Shown one piece after another: positions 46,296 to 62,785 of a DNA stretch of 64,000 bases. This DNA is from a virus. The position numbers were made by a program, and so were the translations under genes. Position 1 is the first letter of the stretch. Every line of letters starts with the position of its first letter. Under the pieces are notes generated by a model. It was not told the DNA's origin and searched no databases. It worked only from the letters and a program-made list of their open reading frames with translations. The stretch is taken from the IMG/VR virus record IMGVR_UViG_3300042861_001913, one strand, 5' to 3'.

Positions 46296-46886
46296 ATGAT
46301 CTATTTAATGTCAGATATAGCGGAGTTCAAACAAAGTAAAGCTAAGAACAACAATCTCAAACGTAACTTAATGATAGGAGCAGGATTACTTGGAGGTGTT
46401 GCATTAACAACTATAGGTGTTCGTAGTTATTTAAGGAATGGTAAATTAGTTAGACAAAGTACACGTAAAGTTAACAAAGTAAATGAAATCGTTGATCCAA
46501 TGAAGTTAACTACACCTAAAGAAATAATAGATAATCATCAATCAGTAGTTAGATTAGTTCTTTCACACAGAATAGCTATAAATTTTAAAGATGGTCAAAT
46601 TTTAAATTATGAAGATTTAAATAATTTAATTGATGACACGTCATATTGGAAGTTAGATGTTAAAAATACACCAACACCAAATGATTTAAATCTAAATAAT
46701 GAAACTAGATTAAATCCTGATAGTTTATCTGAACGTTATATTGAAATAGCATATACTGGAAAACCACATAATGGTAAAACACGTTATTCTCTTAGAAATA
46801 ATATGACAGATAAAGATAAAGGTGTAATAATAGTTAACAAAAATATGAAAGATTTAAGTGGATTAATAAATTTCAACAGAGTTTGA
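46296..46886 (+). CDS. tag-family protein P1 (MIYLMSD start, glycine-zipper segment, internal SYLRNGKLVRQSTRK)
   Basis: ATG 46296 is 5 nt after the TerS-like stop (track uses TTG 46269); LMIGAGLLGGVALTTIG. Confidence 0.6.
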   Translation: MIYLMSDIAEFKQSKAKNNNLKRNLMIGAGLLGGVALTTIGVRSYLRNGKLVRQSTRKVNKVNEIVDPMKLTTPKEIIDNHQSVVRLVLSHRIAINFKDGQILNYEDLNNLIDDTSYWKLDVKNTPTPNDLNLNNETRLNPDSLSERYIEIAYTGKPHNGKTRYSLRNNMTDKDKGVIIVNKNMKDLSGLINFNRV

Positions 46887-46906
46887 AACAAAAGTAATGC
46901 TATCTC

Positions 46907-46918
46907 GTAAGAAAAAAA
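46907..46918 (+). repeat. iterated motif GTAAGAAAAAAA copy (intergenic)
   Basis: exact; 21 nt after the stop of 46296..46886. Confidence 0.9.
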
Positions 46919-47000
46919 GGGTAGGACAACGAAGCAATCTAATCAAGGCGCGACCTAACCTAAGTATAAAATTATACTAAGTACAAGACGCGCACTAAAT

Positions 47001-47038
47001 AAGCTACCTAACATGAACTAGGTAGCTTCACTTTTATT
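47001..47038 (+). terminator. rho-independent terminator between convergent genes
   Basis: 10-bp stem AAGCTACCTA/TAGGTAGCTT, loop ACATGAAC, then CACTTTTATT. Confidence 0.6.
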
Positions 47039-47078
47039 CAGTTTCTTCTTCAGTTAATGACTCAATTATACTAACACA

Positions 47079-47549
47079 CTATTTTTTCTTACTCATACGT
47101 TTTCTTAATTCATTAGCTCCAAGTAATGCACTACCTACTCCGAATCCTATTAATGCACCTTTACCAATAGATACATTTCTAATCTTATTAAGTTTGTTTA
47201 ATCTACGAGTATTAGTTTTAGGAAATCTATTATTTCTACTTCCACTTCCAAAATAATTAGCTATACTCTCCATTATTTTTAATTGTTCTTTAGCATAACT
47301 TTTACCGGGTTTACCTTTCATATCATTTAATACATCTTTCCAAGAATCAGGAAATTCTTTCTTCCAGCCTTGAGCGTCCCATAATTTATTTGTTCGTTTT
47401 AAATTATTTTTCATTAAATAATTAACTTTGCTATCTCTACCTCCAACGTATCCACCAATAGCAGTAGCTCCACCAAGTAAAGCAGTATTAGTTAGCAAAC
47501 CTCTAGATTTTCTTTTAACTTTATCCTTATCACCTAATTTACGCGCCAT
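47079..47549 (-). CDS. tag-family protein P2 (ARKLGDKDKVKRK tag, two glycine-zipper segments)
   Basis: MARKLGDKDKVKRKSRGLLTNTALLGGATAIGGYVGG ... GALIGFGVGSALLGAN; same architecture as 55353..55793. Confidence 0.6.
   Translation of the reverse strand: MARKLGDKDKVKRKSRGLLTNTALLGGATAIGGYVGGRDSKVNYLMKNNLKRTNKLWDAQGWKKEFPDSWKDVLNDMKGKPGKSYAKEQLKIMESIANYFGSGSRNNRFPKTNTRRLNKLNKIRNVSIGKGALIGFGVGSALLGANELRKRMSKKK
47082..47092 (-). repeat. iterated motif GTAAGAAAAAA copy
   Basis: plus strand TTTTTTCTTAC; encodes the final SKKK-stop of 47079..47549. Confidence 0.9.
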
Positions 47550-47581
47550 AATTAAAACATATTAACTTACACATACATTAT

Positions 47582-49231
47582 ATGACTTCCCGCGAACAAT
47601 TAGAAAAAGAACTAGCTAACATAGAGAACAAGTTATATGAACTAGCGATACTAGATAATAAGGATGAACAGTATGAATTAGAATCACTACTAGAAGAACA
47701 AAGTTACGTTCAAGCATATCAATCTAGTTACAGTTTCCTAGCTCATAGTTGGCAGACATTCAATGGTGAAGTATTCCTACCAGCTAAACATCTACACGCA
47801 ATAGCCGAACATCTAGATGCAACATTAACTGGTGAAATAAAACGACTTATAATTAACGTACCACCTAGAACTGCTAAGTCAGCATTAGTAACTAAAGCAT
47901 TTCCAGCCTATTGTTGGATAAGGCAGCCTCATCTTAAATTCGCCAACGTTAGTTATGGTTATGGATTAGCAGAAGAAGGTAGTGTACATAGTCGTCAGAT
48001 AATGCAATCTGATTGGTATAAGCGAGGTATGGCTACAGTATGGCGCGATATGGGTGCTACACCATGGGAGTTCAGACGCGATAAGAATATGAAGAATGAC
48101 TATGAGAATAATGCTAATGGTCGTAGATTCGCCACATCATGTCCTGAAGGTATCTTCACTGGTATTGGTGCAGACACAATTATAATTGACGACCCTGTTA
48201 AAGCTAACGCTGCATATAGTAAGAATACACTTGATAAAGTTAATCAATGGGTCAGCAATACTCTGATGTCGCGTTTAAACAACCAATCAGAAGGTGTTAT
48301 CATCTTGGTTCAACAAAGGGTTAGTGAAATGGATATGACTGGTTTTTTCTTACAACAAGAAGGAGTTTGGGAACATCTATGTCTCCCAATGGAATATGAA
48401 GACACTCAGAGATACTGGACTCGCATTGGTTGGACTGATTGGCGCACTAATCAGAATGAATTACTTGAACCAATTCGATTTCCGCGAGATGTGGTTGAGA
48501 GGCTCAAGAAGGACGAGGAATGGAGCTATGCTAGTCAATATCAACAACAACCAGTTCCGCTCGGTGGTGGACTTATTAGGCGTGAATGGTGGCAGAATTG
48601 GTACATACTTCCAACTCAGTTTGATGCAACTTGCATGGCATTCGATTTATCTATGAACGATAAGGAAACTAGCGATAATACGTCACTTATAGTTATGGGA
48701 CGTAAGGATAACAAGTTCTACATTATTGACTTAGTGTATGGCAAAATGGATATACTTAAACAAGTAGAATCCATAATTGAGTTGTGTAATAAGTATCCGA
48801 TGATAAGAACTAGGTTAATTGAACAACGTGCAAATGGAGATGCTGTAATTGCATTACTTAAACGTACCATAACTGGACTTATACCACTCATAACTAAAGG
48901 TGATAAAGAACAACGTATCCTTAGTTGTGTGCCAGAAATTAATGCAGGTAACGTATTAGTTCCAGATGAGAATGTACATAGTTGGATTAAACCACTATTA
49001 CTAGAAGCTACTATGTTTCCACGTGGTAAGAATGATGATGCTATTGATAGTATGCAGATGGCACTTAATCATCTAGTTACGTCAAACATCGTTACTTATA
49101 TGCCACTTCAAGTTATTACAGATAGTCCAGGTAATACAACTCGTGCTGAAATAAGAGAACATATAATGGATAGTAGTTATGCTGTTACAGTTAATGTGAC
49201 TCGTAACTATATTAAAGGTTTATTTGAATAA
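47582..49231 (+). CDS. terL: terminase large subunit
   Basis: ATPase IINVPPRTAKSALVT and IIIDDP; nuclease half FDLSMNDKETSDNTSLIVMG...YIIDLVYGKM...GDKEQRI...FPRGKNDDAIDSM. Confidence 0.85.
   Translation: MTSREQLEKELANIENKLYELAILDNKDEQYELESLLEEQSYVQAYQSSYSFLAHSWQTFNGEVFLPAKHLHAIAEHLDATLTGEIKRLIINVPPRTAKSALVTKAFPAYCWIRQPHLKFANVSYGYGLAEEGSVHSRQIMQSDWYKRGMATVWRDMGATPWEFRRDKNMKNDYENNANGRRFATSCPEGIFTGIGADTIIIDDPVKANAAYSKNTLDKVNQWVSNTLMSRLNNQSEGVIILVQQRVSEMDMTGFFLQQEGVWEHLCLPMEYEDTQRYWTRIGWTDWRTNQNELLEPIRFPRDVVERLKKDEEWSYASQYQQQPVPLGGGLIRREWWQNWYILPTQFDATCMAFDLSMNDKETSDNTSLIVMGRKDNKFYIIDLVYGKMDILKQVESIIELCNKYPMIRTRLIEQRANGDAVIALLKRTITGLIPLITKGDKEQRILSCVPEINAGNVLVPDENVHSWIKPLLLEATMFPRGKNDDAIDSMQMALNHLVTSNIVTYMPLQVITDSPGNTTRAEIREHIMDSSYAVTVNVTRNYIKGLFE
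48343..48353 (-). repeat. iterated motif GTAAGAAAAAA copy
   Basis: plus strand TTTTTTCTTAC inside terL (GFFLQ, third phase). Confidence 0.9.
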
Positions 49232-49502
49232 CACTATGACTATTAATCAGATATTAAAGAAAGCATATACAGATCAATCTCATATAACTCTGTTTATAGA
49301 CAACATCGAATATCAGTTTGATAATGCAATAGTAACTAGATTAACTAGAACTGAGATAACATTCATGAGTCCGGCGTATCATCCTGATGGAACTTGTCTA
49401 ATTGAATATACATTTGATAGAACATTAGTTATTGGAGTTGGTCGTATCGTAGCTAGATTAAATGTAGATAGTAAGTTACCACCAGATGCGTTCATGTTAT
49501 AA
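49224..49502 (+). CDS. hypothetical protein (92 aa)
   Basis: ORF track; overlaps the terL stop. Confidence 0.5.
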   Translation: MNNTMTINQILKKAYTDQSHITLFIDNIEYQFDNAIVTRLTRTEITFMSPAYHPDGTCLIEYTFDRTLVIGVGRIVARLNVDSKLPPDAFML

Positions 49503-49516
49503 TAACGTTAGTGACC

Positions 49517-49556
49517 AAAAAAATAAGCACCCTCTTAATTGAAGGTGCTTTTTCTT
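49517..49556. terminator. bidirectional rho-independent terminator
   Basis: stem AGCACC(C)TC/GA(A)GGTGCT 49526-49549 flanked by an A-run upstream and a T-run downstream, between convergent genes. Confidence 0.7.
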
Positions 49557-49586
49557 TATGTTGCAGTAGTTAAATAACTTCGTCTA

Positions 49587-49889
49587 TTAACCCTGTTTAT
49601 CGTAACGTGCTTTACTCTTGTATTCTTGAGCTGGTCTGAAGCTAACCTTCTTATGAGCTTCAACTAACTTAGGTTCTTTAGTAAAGATAGTGCTAACTGT
49701 ACGTTCCTTAACTTCAGTTGTACTAAATGTACCAAATCCCTTAATGCTAACTGACTCAGTTAATGATGCTGCTTTAATTGCTTCAATCATAGCCATGAAA
49801 GCTACTTGTAACTTGTACTTAGGAATAGTGTCAGTGAACTTATCGTAAACTGCTCTAGAACCAACTTCTACTAAATGTTCAACGTTCAT
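49587..49889 (-). CDS. HU/IHF-like DNA-binding protein
   Basis: SIKGFGTFSTTEVKERT ... VSFRPAQEYK follows the HU pattern (GFGTF...R...F+xxxxL+). Confidence 0.6.
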   Translation of the reverse strand: MNVEHLVEVGSRAVYDKFTDTIPKYKLQVAFMAMIEAIKAASLTESVSIKGFGTFSTTEVKERTVSTIFTKEPKLVEAHKKVSFRPAQEYKSKARYDKQG

Positions 49890-50190: not shown

Positions 50191-50745
50191 ATGAGCGATG
50201 TCTATTTAGATGAATATATTTACGCTACAGCACTTGCTAAAGAGCATGGTAAAGAGGTTAAACATTGGTTAGAAAACGCAGGAACTAAAAAAGCTATTAA
50301 AGCAGTCGAGTCTGAAATTTTAAAACAATGTGTAATTAAACGTCAAGGTGGTAACTTTACTAAACAAGGAACATGGATTCATAACAAATTATTACCGTAC
50401 TTTCAACAATGGTTAAATGTACATAGTATTAGATATGAGTTTAAAAGAGACGAAACTGAATTTAAATTATTATTAGAATCTACATTTAAAGACCTATTAG
50501 TGTTTGAATATCAAAAGAAAGTAGATAATTATTATTTAGATTTTTATAATGAAAAATATAATCTAGTTATTGAATACGACGAAACACATCATAACAACGT
50601 AGATATTAAAGATAACGATATTAAACGTGAACAGTATTTAATTGCTAAATTGAACTGTACTATTATTAGAGTTAAACAAGGTGAAGAATTTCAAGGTATT
50701 AATCAAATTATTAAATTTATGATGGAGAACAAAATTAATGAGTAA
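50191..50745 (+). CDS. KilA-N domain fused to a DUF559/Vsr-like endonuclease-fold domain
   Basis: N-terminal ...GTWIHNKLLPYFQQWL (KilA-N end); C-terminal YYLDFYNEKYNLVIEYDETHH...DIKREQYLIAKLNCTIIRV resembles the YxxDF...hhhExDG..H...D..R core. Confidence 0.55.
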   Translation: MSDVYLDEYIYATALAKEHGKEVKHWLENAGTKKAIKAVESEILKQCVIKRQGGNFTKQGTWIHNKLLPYFQQWLNVHSIRYEFKRDETEFKLLLESTFKDLLVFEYQKKVDNYYLDFYNEKYNLVIEYDETHHNNVDIKDNDIKREQYLIAKLNCTIIRVKQGEEFQGINQIIKFMMENKINE

Positions 50746-51646
50746 TATAGTTAAAGCCTTTGATTTTAATAACGAATCAATTTATCGCCGCACTTCAGAT
50801 AACTATTGGAATGCAACTGCAATGTGCAAAGCAGGTGGTAAAAGAATAGATCACTTTTTCGAGAACAAATGGTCAAAGTCTTATATAGAACAGGTTTCCA
50901 CGATCACCGGAATTAAGGGTAACGAACTTGTTCAAACAATTAAAGGTGGTAATCCTTATGAACAAGGAACTTGGGTACATGAAATAGTTGCAATACGAAT
51001 AGCCCAATGGTTATCACCTGAATTTGCTGCTAAAGTTGACTTAACTCTATATCAACTAAAACAGCAGTATCAACAATCACATCAATTATTACTAGAACAA
51101 GAATCTGCTAATGTACACGGCATTCCAATTGCACCACGTAATGAAGTAGACTTAGCATTCCGCATTAAGAACTGGATTGATTTATGTACTGATGGTGGTA
51201 GATTCTACATTGAACATCCACTAATCAATACTATTAATGCAACAACTAAAACTAGAAGAGTTGACTTCGTTAAATCTAATGGACGTAATGTTATAGTATA
51301 TGAGTTAAAGTTAAATAAGATAACTACAAATGACATAGCTAAAACTATAGGAGATAAAGGTTATTATCAACTATGTGCTGATAAGTTCAATCGTCCCATT
51401 AAGTTTATATTCCTATCACCGTTAGGTATAACTAATGAAGCACAGTTACTACTAGATAGGATGAATGATGTGAGTTTCCTAACTACACAACAACTATGTC
51501 AGGAGTATTATGTTAAAGGTAAGAAAAATAAGTGGCGCAGTTCTGAATGGTATTTAGATGTGCAAGTTAAAGATGATAAGTTCTCACATCTATTCACAGA
51601 TGAGTTTATTAATGATGTTACAGTTAAGTTAACTAAGGTAAAGTAG
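50738..51646 (+). CDS. KilA-N domain fused to a PD-(D/E)XK-like nuclease domain
   Basis: YWNATAMCKAGGKRIDHFFENKW...GTWVHEIVAIRIAQWLSPEFA (KilA-N); C-terminal RRVDFVKSNGRNVIVYELKLNK (D...ExK). Confidence 0.6.
   Translation: MSNIVKAFDFNNESIYRRTSDNYWNATAMCKAGGKRIDHFFENKWSKSYIEQVSTITGIKGNELVQTIKGGNPYEQGTWVHEIVAIRIAQWLSPEFAAKVDLTLYQLKQQYQQSHQLLLEQESANVHGIPIAPRNEVDLAFRIKNWIDLCTDGGRFYIEHPLINTINATTKTRRVDFVKSNGRNVIVYELKLNKITTNDIAKTIGDKGYYQLCADKFNRPIKFIFLSPLGITNEAQLLLDRMNDVSFLTTQQLCQEYYVKGKKNKWRSSEWYLDVQVKDDKFSHLFTDEFINDVTVKLTKVK
51519..51528 (+). repeat. iterated 10-mer GTAAGAAAAA copy
   Basis: exact; sense in 50738..51646 (GKKN). Confidence 0.9.
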
Positions 51647-52210: not shown

Positions 52211-55200
52211 ATGAACATCAACAAGTACATTAAAGAACAAGATGAGTTAGTTACTGCATTTACAGATGGATTAACTAATAGTATAGGTAACTCATTATCG
52301 CGTAAACAAGATAACTTAAGTCTCATTATCAGTAATCAATTAAATAAGTTATGGAATGATAGTTGGAATCTCGGACGTACTCATGCAATAGATGAAACGC
52401 CGCCATCCCTTTTTTCTTACTCTGATAGCATTGCGGAATTTGCATCACCACTTGAGAAATTAAGAAATGAGATTGATGAAATTACTAAGGAAAAGGAAGG
52501 TTATCAATCTGAGTTAGATAGAATACGTCGTGATTATCAAGATAAAGAAGGTAATTATAGTGGTACTAAGATATTAAGATCAATTGATAAAAAAGGTACT
52601 TATAATGATGTAGATAAAGTTAGAGCTATTCAAGTTATACGTAATCGTGAAGATGAGTTAAATGCACTTATCGCAGCTAAGGATAACTTAATTAAAGATA
52701 AACAAGATAAGTTTTTTGAATTAACTGATCCTGCTAACATAGCTAAGTTAAATGAGTTATCTAAAGATACTAAAGATGTTACACCTGAAGTATTACCTCG
52801 TGTTAATAAAGCTGAAGTTAATCAACAATTAAGTAAAGCAGTTAGAGATAGAGATGCTTGGCGTAAATCATTTGTAGATGAGAATGGTAATTTAAACTTA
52901 GCTAAGTATAGAAGAGTTAAAGGTTATGACACTTCTGATAGTGATGCTGATGTATTAAAACAAATGAAGAGAGAAGAACTTGATTTAATTAATGAAGTTA
53001 AACGACATAATCAAACACTTAATGATATTAATGATAGAAGTACATCAACTAGAACTACATCTATTAAGGAACAAGCTTTAATTGATAAACAAAAACGTAG
53101 AATTGAACGTCAATTAAAGAAACAACAGAACTTACAAACAACTAAGTTAGATGCTAATAAGATACCTGCTAACATCAGAGATTCAGTTCAAGCAATTGAA
53201 CAACGTCGTCAAATTGAATCTACTAGAGGCGATGTACCATTACTTGAACAAACTGAGTTTGGTAAATCGTATTTAAATAGACGTATTAATACTATAGGTA
53301 ATGATCTGAACGAACGATATAAAGCGACATTACAACAGATACTTGTTGGTGAAAAAGAAACTAAAACTACTGGTTATTTAGCAGATAATAGCCCTGATAA
53401 AGACGTTACTTATTATAAACGTATTAGTGCAATGTTAACTAGAGAAGATGCTAAACAAATGGAGCAATACAATAAACAACTTGAGTTAATTAAAACTCGA
53501 TTAGATGATATCCCAACTAAATTAACTGCAACTAAAGATATGAATGTTTATGAGAGTGTAGCATTCCTTAAACAGAAGTATGATCCTGATGTTAAGTTAA
53601 CTATCACTGATAAGAAACTACTTAATGAGTTACCAGATAAAGCAGTTTATAAGATGCAGGATTTAAGAGCTTATCGTGACAAGTTACTTGAGAAAGTAAG
53701 AAAACTAAAGGATAATCAGGCTCGTACTAAACGTATTGCAATAACTGAAATGGGACACGCTTATAATTTAGGGCGACTTGATTACTACGTGAAACAAGGT
53801 ATTAAGTTTGTTAAGTGGAACAATAGTATTGAACATAAACGTGCTATGATTCCCGGCGATTATAATACTAGATATCGTAAAATATACAATAAATTATCTG
53901 AGTTAATTAATAGATCACCACAACTTGAGTCATTTAAGATGGATGGTATTGTATGTCCAATATGTCAGGAACGCGCTATCTATGATTATGGTTATGGTAA
54001 AGGAATAATTAAGATAGATGACTTGTTAAGTAATAGTCAAAGTCAACCACTACTTCACGCAAATTGCTCGTGTTTTCTTACCAGTGTAGAGGAATCTGAA
54101 ACTAAAGAACCATTTAATGTACCAATCTATGTATCATCATTACTTAATAATAATGTTGTTAAATGGGCAACTGCTGGTATATTAGGAACTGCTGCTATGT
54201 ATGCGGCATTTAAGAAGAGTAATGTAACTCCACTTAACATACCTGATATTATTAGAAGTAAACCAGCAGTAGTTACAACTAAAGCATTAAGTCAAGCATT
54301 ACTAGATGATATTATTGATGTTCCATTAGTTCCATTACAAATACCTGAACGTGTACCAACTACAATTAACATTGATAGAGCAAATAAAGTATTAGAAGAT
54401 GTAGTTAATTGGCACACTAATACTATTGATGAGTCTATTACTAAAGCTATTGAAATAGATAATAGATATGAATTAGTTAATCCATTTATGACAGCAATTA
54501 CTGAATCTTCAGTAGATGACATTACAACTAGAGTTAAAAAATATAACTCTATAACTAAAGCTACTTTAACTAAAAATGATCTTAATCAATTTAAAGAAGA
54601 TGTAGATAAAATTCAACATTACATTAATGAAATAGAAGATGCTAATACTAAGATTTATTCATCTATTCAATCAATGAAGTTAGCTAGAAAAGCAATTATA
54701 GATGAAGGGTTGAATAAGCTAAGTGATGAATTAATTCCACCTGGATTTACTCCAGAACAAGTTATTATTAGTAATCCTATTATCCAACGATTAGATAATC
54801 AGATAATACAATCTGAGAATACATTAAGGAATGCAATTTCATTAAAGTTAGGTGAAACTAGTCATTATTCAACACTAAAAAGAATCAGAAATGATTTATT
54901 AGATAATGAGTTATTTAAGTTGGAGTACATTAAACGTAAACGTGGTGTTCTATTAAGATTACAAGATAAATTAATTGGTAAATTTGATAAAGTTAAAAAA
55001 GTTTTTGTTGGTGGACAAGTTAATCCTAGAGTATTAGAACGTGATTTAGAAGAGTTACAGAATACTATACTTTCTAATTACATGAATGTAAATAATGAAC
55101 AATTTGAATCATATGTTAGACAATTAGATAATATTGAGTTAGCAATAGATGGACAACTTGAGTTAATTAAGAATAAGTTAGGTTTGACTAGTTTAGATGC

Positions 55201-55327
55201 ACGTAATTACACAGGTAATGATATGGCAGTATTAACTAGCGAGTTTATTAGTGATTATAAGAATGGTTTAATGCGAAGTAAACTTAGAGCTATGGGATTA
55301 AGAAATCTATTAATAGATGTAAAATAG
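52211..55327 (+). CDS. MuF-like (SPP1 gp7 family) minor head protein with long N- and C-terminal extensions (1038 aa)
   Basis: central RTKRIAITEMGHAYNLGRLDYY...KFVKWN...GIVCPICQERA...PLLHANCSCFLTSV matches the MuF core ending in the HxNCRC-like motif; coiled-coil N-terminal region; TM-like VVKWATAGILGTAAMYAAF after the core. Confidence 0.75.
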   Translation: MNINKYIKEQDELVTAFTDGLTNSIGNSLSRKQDNLSLIISNQLNKLWNDSWNLGRTHAIDETPPSLFSYSDSIAEFASPLEKLRNEIDEITKEKEGYQSELDRIRRDYQDKEGNYSGTKILRSIDKKGTYNDVDKVRAIQVIRNREDELNALIAAKDNLIKDKQDKFFELTDPANIAKLNELSKDTKDVTPEVLPRVNKAEVNQQLSKAVRDRDAWRKSFVDENGNLNLAKYRRVKGYDTSDSDADVLKQMKREELDLINEVKRHNQTLNDINDRSTSTRTTSIKEQALIDKQKRRIERQLKKQQNLQTTKLDANKIPANIRDSVQAIEQRRQIESTRGDVPLLEQTEFGKSYLNRRINTIGNDLNERYKATLQQILVGEKETKTTGYLADNSPDKDVTYYKRISAMLTREDAKQMEQYNKQLELIKTRLDDIPTKLTATKDMNVYESVAFLKQKYDPDVKLTITDKKLLNELPDKAVYKMQDLRAYRDKLLEKVRKLKDNQARTKRIAITEMGHAYNLGRLDYYVKQGIKFVKWNNSIEHKRAMIPGDYNTRYRKIYNKLSELINRSPQLESFKMDGIVCPICQERAIYDYGYGKGIIKIDDLLSNSQSQPLLHANCSCFLTSVEESETKEPFNVPIYVSSLLNNNVVKWATAGILGTAAMYAAFKKSNVTPLNIPDIIRSKPAVVTTKALSQALLDDIIDVPLVPLQIPERVPTTINIDRANKVLEDVVNWHTNTIDESITKAIEIDNRYELVNPFMTAITESSVDDITTRVKKYNSITKATLTKNDLNQFKEDVDKIQHYINEIEDANTKIYSSIQSMKLARKAIIDEGLNKLSDELIPPGFTPEQVIISNPIIQRLDNQIIQSENTLRNAISLKLGETSHYSTLKRIRNDLLDNELFKLEYIKRKRGVLLRLQDKLIGKFDKVKKVFVGGQVNPRVLERDLEELQNTILSNYMNVNNEQFESYVRQLDNIELAIDGQLELIKNKLGLTSLDARNYTGNDMAVLTSEFISDYKNGLMRSKLRAMGLRNLLIDVK
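52410..52420 (-). repeat. iterated motif GTAAGAAAAAA copy
   Basis: plus strand TTTTTTCTTAC in the MuF-like gene (LFSY). Confidence 0.9.
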
Positions 55328-55352: not shown

Positions 55353-55793
55353 ATGTACTTAATGGCAGATTTTGCGCGACGTGTTGGAAGTAAAGATAAG
55401 AAGAAACGTAAAAACGCTAACTTATTTACATCAACACTAATAGGTGGTGGTTTAATGTATGGTGGTTATAAATTAGATGAGCCTGGAATTAGATTACCTG
55501 ATAAAAAACCTAAACTTAATAGAACTACTAGTGGTGATCCTGGTTTAGATTTGGCATTTGATTTTAAAAACGAATTAATTAAACGAAATAAACCTGAAGT
55601 TAATAGACGTTATTTTAAATTATTTGGTGGTAAATACAAACAGTTAGTTGATAATACTTTATATAGTCCTAATCCTGGAAGAAGACAACTTGCAGCTATT
55701 GGAACATTAGTTGGTGCTGCTTATTTAGGAGCTAACGCAATTAAAGGTGGTAGTTATTTAATTAATAAAGCGCGTAATAAAGGTAATAAATAG
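55353..55793 (+). CDS. tag-family protein P3 (FARRVGSKDKKKRK tag, two glycine-zipper segments)
   Basis: MYLMADFARRVGSKDKKKRKN...LIGGGLMYGG ... AAIGTLVGAAYLGANAIKGG. Confidence 0.65.
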   Translation: MYLMADFARRVGSKDKKKRKNANLFTSTLIGGGLMYGGYKLDEPGIRLPDKKPKLNRTTSGDPGLDLAFDFKNELIKRNKPEVNRRYFKLFGGKYKQLVDNTLYSPNPGRRQLAAIGTLVGAAYLGANAIKGGSYLINKARNKGNK

Positions 55794-55794
55794 T

Positions 55795-56748
55795 ATGTTT
55801 CTAATGTCAGATACCGCGAACTTCAAGCGCACTAAAGTTAAATCATTTATTAGGAAAGGTAAAGTAGTTAGAAGTTACGATAGATCAATCAGAGATAGAA
55901 TACGTGATGTTGCTATAGGTGCAACTGGAACTGCATTATTAGGTGGTGCATATCTATTAGGTAAACGTAATGGTGCAAGATCATTAGATGAAGTTAAGTC
56001 ATTAATTAAGAACATTAAACCTGAAGTTACAGTTAATGTACCAACTCCAATCGTTAATGTAACTAATACTCCAGGTGTAGTTAGAGAGATAGTTAAAGAA
56101 GCATCTAGTAAGTCAAGTAAAGTTAATGAAGTAATTAACAATGCAATTAAATTAGATATAGTTAGAGTTAGATTACCATCTAAGGTTTATAACCTAAGTG
56201 AATCAACTATTAATAAAACTGCTAGTGAAGCTGCTAAGTTGACCGACGTTAAATTAGAGAGAACTATTAGTCTTATTAGTCGTAGATTACAGAAGTATAA
56301 CGTTAGTAATAATGAGTTAGTTAAACTAGATAGTTTGTTACTTAGTTTAAATAGATTTAAAACAGGTAAGTTTAATAAAGAAAGTGAACGTGAGTATTTA
56401 CGTAAACAGATAATTGAATATAGAGATTACTTTAAGTTACCTAAAGTAGATGTAAATGAACTTAATGTAGAATCAGTTGTAGATAGGGATTATGCAACTA
56501 AGTTAAAGAAGGTTATTACTAGAGATAAATCAATATTAGACATCTATCAAAGTGAGTTAACTAAACGTCGTGAAGTTGCAACTAATATAACTACTCCAAC
56601 TGATGCTGACATTGATAGACTTAGTGGTATGTTAGATGATTTTAGTAGTTCACGCAAACTAACATTATTTAATGACACTAAATCGCGCCGTTCCTTTTTT
56701 CTTACTGATACAGATGTTCCTAAATTAAGTAAACTATTAAATAGATAA
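55795..56748 (+). CDS. tag-family protein P4 (KVKSFIRKGKVVRSYDR tag + glycine zipper; 317 aa)
   Basis: MFLMSDTANFKRTKVKSFIRKGKVVRSYDRS...VAIGATGTALLGGAYLLG. Confidence 0.65.
   Translation: MFLMSDTANFKRTKVKSFIRKGKVVRSYDRSIRDRIRDVAIGATGTALLGGAYLLGKRNGARSLDEVKSLIKNIKPEVTVNVPTPIVNVTNTPGVVREIVKEASSKSSKVNEVINNAIKLDIVRVRLPSKVYNLSESTINKTASEAAKLTDVKLERTISLISRRLQKYNVSNNELVKLDSLLLSLNRFKTGKFNKESEREYLRKQIIEYRDYFKLPKVDVNELNVESVVDRDYATKLKKVITRDKSILDIYQSELTKRREVATNITTPTDADIDRLSGMLDDFSSSRKLTLFNDTKSRRSFFLTDTDVPKLSKLLNR
56695..56705 (-). repeat. iterated motif GTAAGAAAAAA copy
   Basis: plus strand TTTTTTCTTAC in 55795..56748 (FFLT). Confidence 0.9.
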
Positions 56749-56755: not shown

Positions 56756-58546
56756 ATGATTATTGCACAATTCAAAGACTCAGATAACTCCGATAAGAAG
56801 AAATCTCAAGTAGGTAAGAAAATAGGTGGAGTTGCACTATTAGGTGGATCAGCAGCTATAGGAACTCAATCTATTAGAAGTGGTTTACCTAGAGCGTTAG
56901 GTGTACGTTTAGAACAACATGGTACTAGTCGTAAAGCTGCTGCAAATATTATTAAAGAGGGTTATTTAGATCCTGGTTATGGTGGAACTATGGAAGGTGT
57001 TACTTCTTCAATGAAGTTACCTAAAGAGTTCCTAGAACGTAGTAAAGGTTATACATTTCTAAGTGGTAAGAATCCAGATCATGTATTTTGGGATAAACGA
57101 AATGGATTAAGTTCTATAGGTGATGTAATAACTAGGAAAATACAGGTACTTGGTTATCGTGGTTCTAAAGCAGGTAAGTTAACTGAAAAAGATGTTGAAC
57201 GTGGTTCTAAATTTATTGGTGCAAGAGTAAATAGTATATTGAAACCATTTAAGAAGCAATTAGATGGAATGACTCCTGAACAAATGTTAGCTGAGATGAA
57301 GAAACAATCAGTAATAAGTGTTGATGTTAAGGCATTATATGATAGTTATGTAGCAGATCCAGAGAAACTTAAACGTGACTTAAAATCAATGAGACGTGAA
57401 ATTGAGAAGTTAGTTAAGAATACTCAAGATGTAGCTAAACGTGGATATAAAGATCCTAGTAGAATTAAATCAATTAGAAAAACTCAAGTTAAGTTTAATA
57501 AGTTATTTAATGATTATAAGGATGAATTTAAAGAATATCAAAAAGGTAGAAAAGATTTTAATACTTATGGTAGAGGTTTTGGTAAACGAAAAGGTAAAAC
57601 AAATTATAATAGTTTACTTAATAATTTTTTAGAACAAAAAGTTGATAGTGGTGATAAGAAAGCTGCTAGATTATTGAAGTTGAAAGATGGATTACAAAAT
57701 CAATTAAAAGCTCAAGAATTTAGTAAGAATCTAGGTCTTAGTGCTGGTTGGACTCAGAAGTTATTACAATCTCCATTATTAGGTGCTGCTGGAGTTGGTA
57801 AAACTGTTTATCTACCAGGAACAGATGAATACTTCAATGATACAAATAGATTTAAATACGATATAGATGATCCATTTGGTAATCCACTTAAATATAAAGA
57901 TTCATTCACATCAGAGAAAGGTGGATTTGGTGGTAATGCACTTAAAACTAAAGAGAAAGTTAGAGCATTTGGTAATAGATTTAGTGCAAGTAAATATCTA
58001 TTAGAAAAAGAAGGTAATGGTAACTTAATTAAAGGTGCATCTAAATTAATGGGTGCTAATAAAGGAAGAGTATTAGCTGGACTTGGAATACTTGGAGTTG
58101 GTGGAACTGCTGCTGGATTACTTGGAGCTAAAGGTATTCAACTATTAAAAGGTAAAGATGATAAGAAGAAAGTAGTAGTACAACCTAAAGTTATAGCAGT
58201 AGTTAAGAAACCTAAACAAGAGATAAGTAAGAAAAATGAGATACTTAAAGCATTACCTAGTTCTGTATTAACTAACGCAGCAATGGGAGGTTATCTTGGT
58301 TTAGCTGTAGGAACTGCATTAGGTATTAAGAATGGATTAGTTAAAGGTGTAGCATTAGGAGCATTAGCTGGTGGAGCATCTGGAATACAAGCTGGTTTAA
58401 ATAAATATAAAGATCGTAAAGAAACATTAGAAAACTATAAGTTACCAAGTCGTAAGATTAAAGTTAAATCATATGCTCGTAAAGGTAAACTAGTGCAAAC
58501 ATTTGAGAGACTTAATCCCTTCTATAATAAAGATAAACGTAAGTAA
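56756..58546 (+). CDS. tag-family protein P5 (596 aa; glycine zippers at both ends; tag KVKSYARKGKLVQTFER at the C-terminus)
   Basis: N-terminal KKIGGVALLGGSAAIG; C-terminal AGLGILGVGGTAAGLLGAKG, GGYLGLAVGTALG, GALAGGASG; tag encoded at 58460-58510. Confidence 0.65.
   Translation: MIIAQFKDSDNSDKKKSQVGKKIGGVALLGGSAAIGTQSIRSGLPRALGVRLEQHGTSRKAAANIIKEGYLDPGYGGTMEGVTSSMKLPKEFLERSKGYTFLSGKNPDHVFWDKRNGLSSIGDVITRKIQVLGYRGSKAGKLTEKDVERGSKFIGARVNSILKPFKKQLDGMTPEQMLAEMKKQSVISVDVKALYDSYVADPEKLKRDLKSMRREIEKLVKNTQDVAKRGYKDPSRIKSIRKTQVKFNKLFNDYKDEFKEYQKGRKDFNTYGRGFGKRKGKTNYNSLLNNFLEQKVDSGDKKAARLLKLKDGLQNQLKAQEFSKNLGLSAGWTQKLLQSPLLGAAGVGKTVYLPGTDEYFNDTNRFKYDIDDPFGNPLKYKDSFTSEKGGFGGNALKTKEKVRAFGNRFSASKYLLEKEGNGNLIKGASKLMGANKGRVLAGLGILGVGGTAAGLLGAKGIQLLKGKDDKKKVVVQPKVIAVVKKPKQEISKKNEILKALPSSVLTNAAMGGYLGLAVGTALGIKNGLVKGVALGALAGGASGIQAGLNKYKDRKETLENYKLPSRKIKVKSYARKGKLVQTFERLNPFYNKDKRK
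58227..58236 (+). repeat. iterated 10-mer GTAAGAAAAA copy
   Basis: exact; sense in 56756..58546 (SKKN). Confidence 0.9.
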
Positions 58547-58552: not shown

Positions 58553-59530
58553 ATGGTAAAACAATCTAAAGTTAAGTCTTATGTTCGCAAAGGTAAAACT
58601 GTTAAATCTTATAACAGATCAATTAAAAATATCGTATTTGATGTAGGACGTGTTGCAGGGCTTGGAATTGGAGGACTTGCTGCAATTAAGTATGGTAAAC
58701 GTATACCTCTAAGTTGGGGTGATAAATTTACTCTGGGTGGTATAGCAGGTGCTTACTTAGGATCATTACCTTCTAACTTAATTAATAAGAATAACAAGAA
58801 AGCTAAACAACAATTAAAGAATATAGGATTAACTGTTGGTGGAATAGGTGGATTAGGATTAGCTACATTAGGTGGAATTAAAGGATATAAGTTTATTAAA
58901 GCCCGTAATACTAAATCATTAGTGTTATTTAATCCAAATGAATCATATCGTAATACTGTAGCTGCATTTAATATTAAAGCTAGAGAACAAGCTAAAACAG
59001 CCCCTAAATCGTTAGATGACATGAAAAGATATTATCAGAAGACATATTCTAATAAAGAATTAGTAGATGCTGAAGCTACTATTTTTTCTTACAATCTTAA
59101 ATCTAGCACTAGAGGTATACTTAAACCTCTTACTGGTGATGATGTATTAAATCTATATGATGAAACATTAACTCCTATAGCTAAACGAATAGTTATTGAT
59201 AGTGAGCGTGTAGCAGCAGTTGAAGGTAAAGATGGATTAAGAGATACTATTTATAAAGCAGTTACTAAGGATTTAGATATACCATTAAGTAAAGCAGAAC
59301 GTAGATATTTTGCTGGTGTTGCTAAAATGAATGATCCGGCAGTTAGAGAAGCTGAACGTAAGGTACTTAAAAAATCATTAGATGCTTATGCTAAAGCTAA
59401 TAATATTGACACAACTAGAGTTAATGGTAGTGTAGACTTAAATAAGATAATTAAGTCACTTAAAGAACGTGGTTTTACTGAATTAGATATTAAACAGATG
59501 ATAGACAAACACAATAACATTAAACTCTAA
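58553..59530 (+). CDS. tag-family protein P6 (KVKSYVRKGKTVKSYNR tag + glycine zippers; 325 aa)
   Basis: MVKQSKVKSYVRKGKTVKSYNRS...VAGLGIGGLAAIKYG...GGIGGLGLATLGGIKG. Confidence 0.65.
   Translation: MVKQSKVKSYVRKGKTVKSYNRSIKNIVFDVGRVAGLGIGGLAAIKYGKRIPLSWGDKFTLGGIAGAYLGSLPSNLINKNNKKAKQQLKNIGLTVGGIGGLGLATLGGIKGYKFIKARNTKSLVLFNPNESYRNTVAAFNIKAREQAKTAPKSLDDMKRYYQKTYSNKELVDAEATIFSYNLKSSTRGILKPLTGDDVLNLYDETLTPIAKRIVIDSERVAAVEGKDGLRDTIYKAVTKDLDIPLSKAERRYFAGVAKMNDPAVREAERKVLKKSLDAYAKANNIDTTRVNGSVDLNKIIKSLKERGFTELDIKQMIDKHNNIKL
59082..59092 (-). repeat. iterated motif GTAAGAAAAAA copy
   Basis: plus strand TTTTTTCTTAC in 58553..59530 (IFSY). Confidence 0.9.
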
Positions 59531-59537
59531 ATAAATT

Positions 59538-59915
59538 ATGTACATTTTATCTGACTATTCATTATCAACATTTGCAAGACGATTAGGTTCTAAAGATAAG
59601 AAGAAGAGAGAACGTCCTAGTATTAGACGTGGTATGTTAACTGGTGCTAAATGGGGTGCTGGGTTAGGTGTTGGTTTAACGGGTTTAACTATCGCTTCGG
59701 CATTAGCTCGTAAAGATGGTAGACAAGCTATGAGAGCAGCATTAAAAGCACAAGGTCGTAATCCTAGTCTTAGAAAAAATGCAGGTATGTTAGCTGGAGG
59801 TGCAGGATTAATTGCTGGAGTTAATGCACTAACTGGCGGTATTCAAGGTGGACTTATTGGAGGTGGAGTTAATGCGATTAGAAAATACCAATACGATAGG
59901 AATAACTCTAAATAA
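59538..59915 (+). CDS. tag-family protein P7 (FARRLGSKDKKKRER tag, Gly-rich; 125 aa)
   Basis: MYILSDYSLSTFARRLGSKDKKKRER...GAGLGVGLTGLTIA...GGAGLIAGVNALTGGIQGGLIGGG. Confidence 0.65.
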   Translation: MYILSDYSLSTFARRLGSKDKKKRERPSIRRGMLTGAKWGAGLGVGLTGLTIASALARKDGRQAMRAALKAQGRNPSLRKNAGMLAGGAGLIAGVNALTGGIQGGLIGGGVNAIRKYQYDRNNSK

Positions 59916-60646
59916 TGAAACAAGTTAAAGTTAAACAATCAGTTCGTAAAGGTAAGTTAGTACGTGGTTATAATCGTGTACTAACTAAAGTAACGGATAA
60001 GTTATTTAAACGAGATAAGGATGGTAAGAAGAAGTTAACCAATCTTAGTAAAGGATTAATAGGCGCGACTTCTATAGCAGGTTTATTAACTGCATTTAAA
60101 TATCGTCGCAACATAGCTCAGTTAAGTGAGAAGATTGTAAATAAGGTTAGTCCAACTGTTAAGCGCGTATTTAATAAAACTGCTAAAACTATAAGTCAAC
60201 CTATCACTAATACAACTGGTGATATTATGGCAGCTAGTGTAACTGGTGGAGCTATGACTAGAGACGCTAGACGTAAATACATACGCGAATTAGATAACTT
60301 ACCAAGTGAAGCAGTTAATATACAACCGTTTACTAAACGTGAAGATAGTTTAATTACTAGACGTATTAAACGTAATGATGCAACACTTAATAAACGAGTT
60401 AATAATGCACGTGGTAAACTAACTTCAGTTAACTATAATTCAGATAATGATCTATATTTAGCTATCAAGACTAATAAAGACTTTAGTTATAAGGGAGCTA
60501 GTAATATTGAAGATAGACGTGCAACTCGTAAAGCATTAGCTAAGAAACTTAAACAACAGTTAGGAGTTAATCCAGGAACTCCAAATCCAGCAACTCCAGT
60601 TAAACGTAAACGTGGTAGACCTAGAAAAGATAGGAGTAATCAATGA
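59915..60646 (+). CDS. tag-family protein P8 with C-terminal AT-hook (243 aa)
   Basis: MKQVKVKQSVRKGKLVRGYNR...GLIGATSIAGLL; C-terminal PVKRKRGRPRKDR (RGRP AT-hook core). Confidence 0.65.
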   Translation: MKQVKVKQSVRKGKLVRGYNRVLTKVTDKLFKRDKDGKKKLTNLSKGLIGATSIAGLLTAFKYRRNIAQLSEKIVNKVSPTVKRVFNKTAKTISQPITNTTGDIMAASVTGGAMTRDARRKYIRELDNLPSEAVNIQPFTKREDSLITRRIKRNDATLNKRVNNARGKLTSVNYNSDNDLYLAIKTNKDFSYKGASNIEDRRATRKALAKKLKQQLGVNPGTPNPATPVKRKRGRPRKDRSNQ

Positions 60647-61728
60647 AGAAACGAGTTAAAGTTAAATCATTTACACGTAAAGGTAGAATAGTTAAAGCTT
60701 ATGATAGATTGCAAGATGATAAGAAGTTACAACAATATAAGAATATAATTAAAGGTGTTAGTTTAATTGGTGGTAGTTTTGCTGCAATTAAAAATGCAGA
60801 TAAGTTATATAAGTTATTTAGGTTAGCTAAAATACAATCTAAAGTAAACAAGATAAATATTAAGCCGTTAAATGTAGCTAATGTTAAATCACCAATAGAG
60901 AAGTTAAATATACTAAACACCTTTAAAATATTTAAAGGTGAATCAACTAACACTATTAAACTAGTAACTAAAGATGGAGTTAATTACATCTATAAAGAAA
61001 GTAGAGATAACTTAGATTCTAATATATTAAGTAATTTAAGTATAGGAAGTTATCCTCATGGTAATGAACAAGCTACAGAAGCACTAATATCATCTATTGG
61101 AAACAAACTTAAAATACCTGTACAAGAAACTGAAATTATAGCAGCGAATCAGATATTTGATGGTAAAAAAGCTGGTTTACCTGGAAGTCTACATAAGATA
61201 GTTGACGGTGTACCAGCATCTGAATTATTTAAAGACATGAATTTTGTTGTAGCTAATCCAGTATCTAAATCTAAATACTCTAAGGTAATTGATAATATAT
61301 TACTAAATAAAGATACTGCTAAAATCGGCGCACTTGATATATTTGTTGGTAATGCTGATAGAAATGCTGGTAACTTATTTTATAACATTAGTAATGGAGC
61401 ATTCACAGCAATAGATAACGGTAGTGCATATACATTACCGTTTGATTATGATTCATTAACTAAGATAATTAAAAGTAAATCGCGCAAACTAAATGAAACT
61501 AAACGACGTAATCTAAATCAATTAAGAGATACATTAACTGAGTTACATAACAATTACACGCCAGAACAACTTGTTAATGAATACGATAGAAATTTCCTTA
61601 AAGCTCTAGATGGTGTAGATGATGATGTATTTAAACAAGCATTAAAATCGCGCGATTCTAGAATTAAGAATATCTATTATAATCACGCCAAGTCTAAAGA
61701 GTTTCTAGATTATTTAAATACTATTTAG
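60643..61728 (+). CDS. tag-family protein P9 with a PI3/PI4-kinase-like (atypical protein kinase) catalytic region
   Basis: MKKRVKVKSFTRKGRIVKAYDR...; C-terminal half GALDIFVGNADRNAGNLFYN...FTAIDNGSA resembles the GDRHxxN catalytic loop plus IDxG metal-binding motif. Confidence 0.55.
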   Translation: MKKRVKVKSFTRKGRIVKAYDRLQDDKKLQQYKNIIKGVSLIGGSFAAIKNADKLYKLFRLAKIQSKVNKINIKPLNVANVKSPIEKLNILNTFKIFKGESTNTIKLVTKDGVNYIYKESRDNLDSNILSNLSIGSYPHGNEQATEALISSIGNKLKIPVQETEIIAANQIFDGKKAGLPGSLHKIVDGVPASELFKDMNFVVANPVSKSKYSKVIDNILLNKDTAKIGALDIFVGNADRNAGNLFYNISNGAFTAIDNGSAYTLPFDYDSLTKIIKSKSRKLNETKRRNLNQLRDTLTELHNNYTPEQLVNEYDRNFLKALDGVDDDVFKQALKSRDSRIKNIYYNHAKSKEFLDYLNTI

Positions 61729-62785
61729 ATCGCCGCGATTCATCAATAGCCATTTTGAGTCTATTTTTAGCCTTATTAAGTTCTTGTACAGCAGAATCCA
61801 TCGCTTGTTTTTTCTTACTTTCTGGAATTTTCGTATTAAATCGAAGTTGTTTTAATTTACGTTGTCTATCTTTAATGTGAGCAATTTCATCAGCTACATT
61901 AATTGGAGCTTTATTAACCTTCCTTATTTGTAATGGTTCATAACCAATAAACTGTTTTACTTGGTTAACAATATTCTTATCATCAACATACTCCGATATA
62001 GTGTGTTGATTTTTTCCTTTAATCCATTTAATGTCAGGGTAAGGAAAATACTTTGATGTTAAATCCCAATCATCTTTACTTCCAAAACTAAGTGTATTAC
62101 CGGGGTTAACTTTATTTATGCCTAAGTAAGTACCAGCATAGTTAATTTGTTTAACTTTACTAACGTTACCTCCCATTTCTTTAAAGATATTAATAGCTTC
62201 AGAATTAATAAAACTACCAGAACTAAATCCATGTAAAACTAAATCTTTATCGGGATATGTTTTAGCGTAAGAATACATATCAGCCGCTAACTCTCTAGCT
62301 GTTGGATTATAACCATCTTTAATAAATGGTTTAGCCCATGCAATAGATCCATTCTTTAATAACTCTAATTTATTCTTATAGTTTCTACCTAGATACTTCA
62401 CATTACTATTAGATGTGTTAACTGGTATTATGTGTTCTTGCGTTTTATCAAATAAGTTTCGTACTTTATGTGCAAAGCTAATTGATTGACGTGCTTCTAG
62501 ATTACTTGCATTAAATCCACCTGTTGTAAAGTGAACTCGTTTTACTTTATCTGATAGTTTAACAGGTGTTATATTATTAGCTAATTTAAATGCTTCTTTA
62601 GCTGATGTTTTATATCCATTAATATAACGTCGTTTTAGTAATAGGTAACTAGCAGCAGTTAGTCCAAGTGTACTTGCAGTAACTATAGTTGCTTTAACTA
62701 ATGCACTGTCTTGTTTACGTTGGTACTGTTTAACTAGTTTACCTTTCCTTACATACGATTTAACTTTAACGTCTTGTTTAACCAT
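61721..62785 (-). CDS. tag-family protein P10 with an alpha/beta-hydrolase (lipase/esterase-like) domain, leftward
   Basis: MVKQDVKVKSYVRKGKLVKQYQRK...ASTLGLTAASYLL; nucleophile elbow LVLHGFSSGSF (GxSxG). Confidence 0.6.
   Translation of the reverse strand: MVKQDVKVKSYVRKGKLVKQYQRKQDSALVKATIVTASTLGLTAASYLLLKRRYINGYKTSAKEAFKLANNITPVKLSDKVKRVHFTTGGFNASNLEARQSISFAHKVRNLFDKTQEHIIPVNTSNSNVKYLGRNYKNKLELLKNGSIAWAKPFIKDGYNPTARELAADMYSYAKTYPDKDLVLHGFSSGSFINSEAINIFKEMGGNVSKVKQINYAGTYLGINKVNPGNTLSFGSKDDWDLTSKYFPYPDIKWIKGKNQHTISEYVDDKNIVNQVKQFIGYEPLQIRKVNKAPINVADEIAHIKDRQRKLKQLRFNTKIPESKKKQAMDSAVQELNKAKNRLKMAIDESRRSK
61808..61818 (-). repeat. iterated motif GTAAGAAAAAA copy
   Basis: plus strand TTTTTTCTTAC; sense in 61721..62785 (SKKK). 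Confidence 0.9.

Follow-up and report, generated by a model that had tools for sequence, protein, structure and literature searches.

Short basic peptide tags shared by unrelated head-module proteins of an uncultured phage: candidate signals for virion incorporation

Why should ten phage proteins with unrelated bodies carry the same short, basic peptides, at one terminus or the other, within a head-morphogenesis module? The question is raised by a 64,000-nt stretch of viral DNA (IMG/VR record IMGVR_UViG_3300042861_001913; hereafter the window), which derives from a large, uncultured phage whose hosts are probably filamentous cyanobacteria. Genes P1-P10, located at 46.3-62.8 kb, each encode a protein bearing one of two peptides, tag 1 or tag 2. 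Here we examine the reading that these tags, often preceded by a leader motif, are portable virion-incorporation modules on effectors that are packaged and ejected, to which we give a probability of roughly 0.55.

Tag 1 has the consensus VKVKSYxRKGKxVxxYxR, and tag 2 is a Lys-rich stretch, (F)ARRxGSKDKKKRK. The copy of tag 1 at the P5 C-terminus is modelled by AlphaFold (AF2) as a β-hairpin with low confidence, and tag 1 is accordingly best described as a putative hairpin of about 17 residues with an R-K-G-K turn. A listing of open reading frames (ORFs) and a six-frame pattern scan of the window reproduced the seven copies of tag 1 and three copies of tag 2 reported by the first-pass annotation of this DNA. 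The tag 1 matches are at 46422-46466, 55840-55884, 58466-58510, 58574-58618, 59933-59977, 60664-60708, and 62717-62761 (minus strand), and those of tag 2 are at 47511-47546 (minus strand), 55374-55409, and 59574-59609. Zero copies of either tag occur outside 46.3-62.8 kb in any of the six frames, and a degenerate DNA pattern for tag 1 gave 4 exact matches against 0.00 expected from 100 dinucleotide-preserving shuffles. When the tags were masked, all-versus-all BLASTP found no pairwise similarity among P1-P10 at E≤0.01, which bears out the annotation's statement that the proteins are otherwise unrelated. The DNA of the tag copies contains many synonymous differences, with runs of 12-18 identical bases persisting; because the copies vary at synonymous sites, selection acts on the peptide. 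The annotation recognized neither tag as a described motif, and indeed no Pfam, NCBIfam or PHROGs model covers them. The ten tagged genes are listed below.

P1, 46296..46886 (+): leader MIYLMSDIAEF, Lys-rich stretch, Gly zipper, tag-1 variant at 46422-46466, variable body; the start is most likely MIYLMSD at 46296.
P2, 47079..47549 (-): tag 2 right behind the start Met (47508-47546); Gly zippers at the N- and C-terminus.
P3, 55353..55793 (+): leader MYLMADF at 55353-55373, tag 2 at 55374-55412, Gly zippers.
P4, 55795..56748 (+): leader MFLMSDTANF at 55795-55824, tag 1 at 55834-55884, Gly zipper, body, and a leader-like C-terminal SFFLTDTD; orthologues on contigs L039 and L070.
P5, 56756..58546 (+): Lys-rich N-terminus, Gly zipper, conserved core, C-terminal Gly zippers, C-terminal tag 1 at 58460-58510.
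P6, 58553..59530 (+): N-terminal tag 1 at 58568-58618, two Gly zippers.
P7, 59538..59915 (+): leader MYILSDYSLSTF at 59538-59573, tag 2 at 59574-59615, Gly zippers (Gly+Ala 30%).
P8, 59915..60646 (+): N-terminal tag 1 at 59927-59977, hydrophobic segment, AT-hook-like C-terminus; orthologues on contigs L030, L039 and L070.
P9, 60643..61728 (+): N-terminal tag 1 at 60658-60708, weak hydrophobic segment, kinase-like body.
P10, 61721..62785 (-): N-terminal tag 1 at 62717-62767, transmembrane-like segment, α/β-hydrolase (GFSSG elbow).

Two of the bodies resemble known enzymes. The P9 body matches Pfam PI3_PI4_kinase (9e-5, below threshold), HipA_2 (0.013) and phrog_3162 (2e-8), and homologues of P10 match Lipase_3; PDB sequence searches found nothing for either protein. 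P10 is the tagged gene with the widest conservation, and its body is polymorphic. The core of P5 is strongly conserved among 22 homologues, with invariant His, Tyr and Asp-rich motifs (RLEQHGTS..., GKTxY.PG.D.YF, F.YD.DDP, FGNRF). No sequence or fold match to known proteins was found for P5, which is possibly a new enzyme; its candidacy as an H-Y-D ADP-ribosyltransferase was dropped, as there was no Pfam, PDB profile or fold match. The C-terminus of P8 (60602-60646) reads KRKRGRPRKD and is kept in relatives as KRKRGRP(R/K)K.

The first-pass annotation had also noted that several members start with M-x-L-M-S/A-D. This start is present in P1, P3, P4 and P7, and it turns out to belong to a separate, third motif that ends in Phe. 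The motif, a leader of the form hh[LI]SDx1-7F, lies upstream of both tags, and does so for copies within fusion proteins as well. In P4 the leader MFLMSDTANF is followed by KRTKVKSF, in P3 MYLMADF by ARRVGSKDKKKRK, in P7 MYILSDYSLSTF by ARRLGSKDKKKRE, and in P1 MIYLMSDIAEF by KQSK. The composite of leader and tag 2 is highly stereotyped across lineages, M(x)[YFL][YFL][LI]SD[IFV]x1-5F-ARKKGSKDKKKRK and then a Gly zipper, and some larger proteins, evidently products of gene fusion, contain it internally too.

All ten proteins are strongly basic (pI 9.7-11.6, net charge +10 to +62), and every tag copy in the window adjoins a hydrophobic segment. GxxxG occurs 1.67 times per 100 aa in P1-P10 and 0.14 times in the other long ORFs of the window, a 12-fold enrichment that is compositional; none of the ten matched a Pfam Gly-zipper family (YMGG, Omp, OmpA-type) at E≤0.1. 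The pairing of each tag with a glycine zipper proposed by the annotation is reflected in the enrichment within the window, although the P9 segment is weak. In a wider set of 65 tag-1 copies a hydrophobic segment lies near only 35, so the zipper is not a general partner of tag 1.

That wider count comes from a profile search, which the annotation had suggested as a check. An exhaustive hidden Markov model search with tag 1 returned 61 clusters at E≤1e-3 among 1.84 billion cluster representatives, and a word-indexed protein search with the tag profile returned only 5 fragments. Our census comprises 58 carriers with 65 tags, of which 43 are N-terminal, 7 C-terminal, and 15 internal or between modules; six proteins have multiple tags. 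As the annotation had proposed, the tag can sit at either end, and it behaves as a portable module at either terminus of unrelated bodies. The annotation's doubt that the tags are classical signal peptides was well placed, because C-terminal, internal and fully soluble carriers exist. A Sec signal peptide or anchor has a strictly N-terminal n-h-c arrangement, from which the 7 C-terminal tags, the 15 internal tags and the carriers without a hydrophobic segment all depart. Across distant lineages V, R, G, V and R of the tag 1 pattern are invariant.

The bodies behind tag 1 include Lipase_3 (4 proteins), other α/β-hydrolases with a Tle3-like match, GNAT, pentapeptide repeats, Tad6, InPase and FAD oxidoreductase. 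Tagged proteins on contigs L031 and L032 contain LPD1 and Tad6, a Thoeris inhibitor. Two large carriers have ParB-type and methyltransferase-like regions, and in one of them, P0061, the ParB-type domain sits between two tags. The P0061 gene is immediately downstream of a Portal_Mu-MuF fusion, and the gene for carrier P0011 is two genes downstream of a Portal_Mu-MuF-Zeta-toxin fusion. On an unrelated phage contig (the P0039 locus, L090:8156-10390), six basic paralogues of 114-129 aa stand in tandem, all opening with tag 1 or a degenerate version of it, among replication genes and beside the genes for topoisomerase IB, DNA ligase and QueC. Soluble subfamilies include these small proteins and an IEKSK type, in which the tag is always preceded by [LIV][LIV]E-K, an arrangement seen in no other tagged group. 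We take this to resemble the L/I-x-E protease site of T4 type.

The extreme basicity of all carriers suggests another explanation, in which the tags are nucleic-acid-binding elements of DNA-associated proteins that condense, protect or organize phage DNA in the cytoplasm or the head, with packaging not directed by the tag. The terminal KRKRGRPRKD of P8, an HU-like gene in the same region, the proximity of the genes for the small soluble tag-1 proteins to those for topoisomerase IB and DNA ligase, and the ParB-type domain between the two tags of P0061 would all fit. Such a function leaves unexplained the tags on lipases, ADP-ribosyltransferases, a Thoeris inhibitor and membrane-anchored proteins, as well as the tight synteny with MuF, protease, scaffold and major capsid protein (MCP) genes described below. 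Entry through the portal with the DNA is impossible for bound proteins, so a separate loading route would still be required. We consider DNA binding in place of tag-directed packaging unlikely, and it partly overlaps with the virion-incorporation reading, as T4 internal proteins also bind DNA.

The hydrophobic segments raise a different alternative, that the proteins remain in the infected cell as unpackaged membrane proteins for superinfection exclusion, lysis control or an assembly platform, and that the tags are juxtamembrane determinants of positive-inside topology. Each tag in the window lies beside such a segment, tag 2 and its zipper look like the n- and h-regions of a signal anchor, and some homologues were auto-named 'YcfJ', a Gly-zipper membrane protein, by one source. 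However, 30 of the 65 tag-1 copies have no hydrophobic segment nearby and whole subfamilies are soluble, and a generic charge cluster would not preserve a 17-residue pattern with five invariant positions. The genes are also embedded between MuF and the protease, scaffold and MCP genes, and proteins with an equivalent segment have been found in virions of Aphanizomenon phage CL131 (see below). A membrane role without packaging therefore seems to us distinctly unlikely.

How far the tags extend beyond one genome can be judged from the relatives. IMG/VR contains many contigs 92-97% identical to the window and one relative at 67%; all have the tags, and their gene sets differ. A DNA scan for tag 1 added about six lineages, whose contigs measure 50-151 kb; the scan for tag 2 (F-A-R..G.KDK.KR) matched 45 stretches, and single contigs contained as many as 8 copies. 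In 596 Gb of prokaryotic genomes, Scytonema sp. NUACC26 alone has tag 1 in frame, on a syntenic contig of 155.8 kb; the remaining 18 pattern matches are out of frame or in tiny ORFs. Deposited phages gave no match by megablast of the region, or by tblastn of one tag-bearing N-terminus and one L031 protein. In the approximately six lineages and the Scytonema contig, tblastn indicates that the gene order is kept: MuF, tagged genes, P10, HTH, protease-scaffold, tag-2 genes, an acidic protein, a 284-aa protein and an MCP-like gene. The motifs are thus conserved in related phages, and the location in a head-morphogenesis module, as first proposed, is upheld, the module being a conserved block across lineages.

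The related contig L055 extends past the end of the window. Here the protease-scaffold gene is followed by more of the family: two more tag-2 proteins, another MARKLGSKDKKKRK protein, a paralogue of P5 whose C-terminal tag 1 is a variant, and a 400-aa protein with two units of leader plus tag 2, whose C-terminal domain matches phrog_220 'minor head protein and DNA pilot' (1.6e-15). A 303-aa scaffold-like protein that is very acidic (pI 4.05, net charge -59), the 284-aa protein and the MCP-like protein are encoded here too, interleaved with the tagged genes. Thus the ten ORFs and their termini stand as annotated, but the family is not limited to ten members, as it runs past the 3' end of the window and totals more than 15 tagged proteins.

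Behind constant tags the bodies are exchanged. P10 has two alternative hydrolase bodies, of 354 and 278-282 aa, behind the same tag module. What follows the P1-type module (leader, Lys-rich stretch, Gly zipper, tag 1) in the window is an uncharacterized body. Sister strains have a module of the same layout and close similarity in front of an ADP-ribosyltransferase (ADPrib_exo_Tox, scoring 37 bits where the Pfam cut-off is 23.4), and a third allele carries a divergent one. The ADP-ribosyltransferase-type alleles are at L023:12105-12947 (+), L022:876-1826 (-) and L055:20255-20854; in L055 a frame break seems to divide the gene. On contigs L002, L005 and L047 (e.g. L002:13762), the N-terminal tag 1 of P4 or P6 is joined directly to the C-terminal tag and tail of P5 in chimeric ORFs of 46-56 aa, and L062 and L105 have lost the stretch that separates the pair of tag-2 units in the 400-aa protein, which together indicate recombination at the tags. 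With breakpoints inside the tags, the conserved stretches could be DNA-level recombination junctions for cassette shuffling that encode functionless peptides. We regard this as very improbable, since the peptide is conserved despite the many synonymous differences, and its pattern persists in lineages whose base composition differs widely, high-GC carriers among them.

If the tags mark packaged cargo, the identities of the neighboring head genes matter. The flanking features are as follows.

47582..49231 (+): large terminase subunit (TerL); Pfam Terminase_6C 4e-12, phrog_38 1e-86.
52211..55327 (+): predicted MuF-like minor head protein, 1038 aa; central hydrophobic segment, leader-like EFISDY at the C-terminus.
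62785..62997 (-): HTH_3 regulator; Pfam HTH_3 2e-12, in a conserved position between P10 and the protease gene.
63090..64000 (+): prohead protease-scaffold fusion by fold, continuing beyond the window; the version in relatives has 403 aa with a terminal basic stretch and Gly zipper.

The annotation placed the family between a MuF-like gene and the prohead protease. Residues 496-632 of the 1038-aa protein match phrog_115 (3e-6), and pairwise BLASTP against the MuF part of a Pfam-annotated Portal_Mu-MuF fusion gave 2e-5 with the motif R..RIA.TE..AYN. Its match to Pfam MuF (PF04233) was not significant (E=2.4). The protein therefore appears MuF-like by these two sequence comparisons, but the Pfam model does not confirm it. 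For the protease-scaffold, Pfam and PDB sequence searches gave no sequence-model match. The N-terminal domain of its AlphaFold model has a pLDDT of 80-96 (residues 20-160). At E≤1e-3 this model matches 37 predicted viral structures in BFVD, which bear the names capsid maturation protease, prohead protease or 'Prohead scaffold and peptidase'. The top fold match in the PDB is the assemblin protease of human cytomegalovirus (HCMV; E=0.06, probability 0.82). Invariant residues are H71, S135, E147 and S149, H71 and S135 being so in 22 homologues. By these fold matches the 63090 ORF is a prohead protease-scaffold of HK97/COG3740 type, so the annotation placed the family correctly. No other protease turned up in the module ORFs scanned. 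The 403-aa protein had been considered as a DUF2213 homologue of CL131 gp038; BLASTP was negative, and its identity was settled only by predicted structure and fold search.

A leader on the MCP and the protease was also considered and rejected. The ortholog alignment starts the MCP downstream, at MG(A/S)..FLTDKLQ, and the (Y/H)F at the N-terminus of the protease belongs to the conserved domain of that protein. At their C-termini, the MuF-like protein (55240-55327, EFISDY) and P4 (56690-56748, SFFLTDTD) have sequences similar to the leader that opens the orthologues of the next gene, which suggests gene fission or fusion at leader boundaries. Two KilA-N genes lie between the TerL and MuF-like genes, one with a DUF559 endonuclease-like domain, and in relatives a GIY-YIG (SegE-like) endonuclease follows the MCP-like gene; these (window 50191-51646; L055:15400-16701) are apparently mobile endonucleases inserted into the morphogenesis module. 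The HU/IHF-type gene (49587-49889, minus strand; Bac_DNA_binding 9e-12) is on the opposite strand within the packaging module. Elsewhere in the window, the segment 36000-40000 has a GC content of 0.37-0.41 compared to about 0.32 in the remainder, around a gene for a 542-aa protein matching phrog_18508 'kinase' (2e-184) that is possibly a recent acquisition. The minus strand encodes every gene from 1 to 44.7 kb and the plus strand the packaging/head module; the switch, at 44000-48000, coincides with the minimum of the cumulative GC skew.

An indirect link to virions comes from Aphanizomenon phage CL131. The sole relative of P10 among isolated phages is the N-terminal part of CL131 gp048 (tblastn 4e-14). 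In purified CL131 virions, liquid chromatography-tandem mass spectrometry detected ORF047 with 14 peptides and ORF048 with 105 peptides and 54.6% coverage (PMC6293099 Table S5). The P10 family can thus be virion-borne, as shown in CL131. Both CL131 proteins (gp047 and gp048; L065 18868-19860 and 19857-25292) have a Cys-rich N-terminal element, CKxGKQCGDxCIPKxSKCxLN, before a similar hydrophobic segment. This element occupies the position of tag 1 in P10 homologues, and it may be an alternative tag, perhaps one that binds zinc.

The two CL131 genes are directly upstream of the tape-measure gene, which introduces a further possibility. The proteins could be virion components of the tail lumen or tape-measure complex, with the tags serving assembly with the tape-measure or tail-tip machinery. 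Tape-measure proteins typically have Gly-rich hydrophobic segments, which would agree with this location. Conversely, the window phage and all tag-bearing lineages place the genes by MuF, prohead protease, scaffold and MCP rather than by tail genes, distant carriers lie behind Portal_Mu-MuF fusions, and the protease-scaffold itself ends in the same basic and zipper arrangement. A tail role for the tags is in our view quite improbable. Like the DNA-binding explanation, it overlaps with the idea of virion incorporation.

We return to the reading of the tags as virion-incorporation modules. It is favored because the tags are non-random, selected as peptides, found on unrelated and swapped bodies in a conserved head block, and found elsewhere near Portal_Mu-MuF fusions. 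The cargo pI of 9.7-11.6 complements the pI of 4.05 of the acidic protein. Further grounds are the fold of the protease, the T4-like array of small tagged proteins, the phrog_220 match behind tag 2, and the detection in CL131 virions. Several points weigh against it. A scan of CL131 found both tags missing, and because its P10 homologue adjoins the tape-measure gene, the virion location could be the tail and not the head. This phage and every tag-bearing phage in our set are known from sequence alone, and the docking partner proposed below is a guess from charge. Cleavage at Phe is unsupported, and the MCP, the protease and several tagged proteins have no leader. Confidence in the hairpin model of tag 1 is low, basic-flanked hydrophobic segments are also typical of ordinary inner-membrane proteins, and some distant carriers are outside head modules.

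The data establish the architecture of the motifs, their conservation and modularity, the genomic context, the fold of the protease, the effector-type domains, and the occurrence of one homologue in virions of another phage. We infer the packaging of the tagged proteins, their docking partner, cleavage, ejection and membrane insertion, which could proceed as follows. Late in infection, a polymorphic set of very basic tagged proteins would be made, here with a Gly/Ala-rich hydrophobic helix. During procapsid assembly, the basic tags would dock on an acidic core formed by the 303-aa protein and the acidic linker of the protease-scaffold. The MuF/portal vertex possibly shares in this docking, and the cargo would thereby be enclosed. 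The adjacent prohead protease would then dismantle the scaffold and free the cargo, and would probably remove the hh[LI]SDx1-7F leaders and split fused modules at Phe junctions as well. After DNA packaging, the basic proteins would lie against the DNA. On infection, the cargo would exit with the genome and the zippers would insert into host membranes, and the bodies would act on the host, such as the lipase/esterase P10, the kinase-like P9, and the ADP-ribosyltransferases of sister strains. More tentatively, and with clearly less confidence than in virion incorporation itself, tag 1 alone might be a general, lineage-crossing signal for loading into HK97-fold heads through a conserved MuF, portal or scaffold partner. 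Together with tag 2 and the leader it might form a sequence code by which injected effectors could be picked out of metagenomes, coupled here to zippers that insert into membranes and bring enzymes to the host envelope.

Injected phage proteins, which include anti-defense factors and host-takeover enzymes, are hard to spot from sequence because known signals such as that of T4 are short and confined to a single lineage. If the tags are loading signals, they would offer a searchable marker for packaged effectors in uncultured large phages, and the marker set already spans lipases, ADP-ribosyltransferases, a Thoeris inhibitor and polyvalent-protein domains. Cargo repertoires would then change through the swapping of cassettes, the address tag staying constant, much as polymorphic toxins evolve, and the tag itself would be a compact means of putting foreign proteins into phage capsids. 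The Gly-zipper coupling would bear on how ejected proteins engage host membranes.

The tags, the leader, their coupling to Gly zippers, their placement at either terminus or internally, and their spread over unrelated uncultured phages are undescribed in the libraries and papers searched. Short targeting peptides for capsid cargo are already known as a kind of system. Among the closest parallels is the capsid-targeting sequence (CTS) of T4, a 10-residue propeptide common to unrelated basic proteins (PMC9026906). As in the T4 internal proteins IPI-III and Alt, and the ejection proteins of SPN3US and phiKZ, a short terminal peptide is found on unrelated, basic, polymorphic proteins. A prohead protease is co-encoded, the cargo includes an ADP-ribosyltransferase (Alt in T4; the L023 and L022 alleles here), small tagged basic proteins occur in tandem, and the repertoire differs between close strains. 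The analogy to T4 internal proteins drawn in the first-pass annotation is strengthened by the tagged ADP-ribosyltransferase, the small tagged basic array and the P10 homologue in CL131 virions. The two systems have no sequence similarity, however. The T4 propeptide ends in L/I-x-E, the site of a gp21-type prohead protease, whereas the window leaders end in Phe and not Glu, and the portion conserved here is basic and probably stays on the protein. The tags, known here from genes alone, are also C-terminal or internal and in this lineage coupled to Gly-zipper helices, and in place of T4 gp21 the protease is, by fold matches, of HK97/COG3740 type.

MuF-associated polymorphic toxins and polyvalent proteins (Iyer et al. 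2017, PMC5512222) similarly have effector domains with or beside MuF or portal and are predicted to be packaged and injected. The window genes directly follow a MuF-like gene, and distant tag-1 carriers hold LPD1, InPase, ParB and methyltransferase-like domains behind Portal_Mu-MuF fusions. Polyvalent proteins contain 2-15 domains per polypeptide, including LPD, MPTase, ART or ParB domains, a multi-domain build that distant tag-1 carriers have, whereas the ten window proteins have single bodies encoded by separate small genes without MuF fusion. A text search of PMC5512222 found neither the tags nor the leader.

The N-terminal extension of ribosomal protein L27 and its Prp cleavage motif, which the capsid and scaffold proteins of Staphylococcus phage 80alpha mimic, share a Phe-ending leader followed by Ala and basic residues; the leader and tag 2 junction ...F-ARRxGSK resembles ...QFF'ASKKGVGS. 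The consensus MLxx(D/N)LQ(F/L)F (with its cleavage junction, MLxx(D/N)LQ(F/L)F'A(S/H)KK) is unmatched, only the F-A-basic junction is common, and the MCP and scaffold here have no leader. Long L27 and Prp are reported from certain phyla, outside which the probable cyanobacterial host falls (PMC9405229). Mimicry of this motif by the leader was rejected on the unmatched L27 consensus, the cyanobacterial host clues and the leaderless MCP.

The podovirus ejection proteins (P22 gp7/gp16/gp20 and T7 gp14-16) are capsid-internal, have hydrophobic segments, and exit with the DNA to form a trans-envelope conduit. One tagged protein has a C-terminal domain matching the PHROG 'minor head protein and DNA pilot', as noted for the 400-aa protein. 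No homology to the podovirus proteins was detected, and the set here differs in comprising more than 15 genes that are polymorphic and enzyme-bearing. Encapsulin cargo-loading peptides have another sequence, bind the shell directly, and operate without DNA or a portal. Like the tags, they are short, portable terminal peptides that address diverse cargo into an HK97-fold shell.

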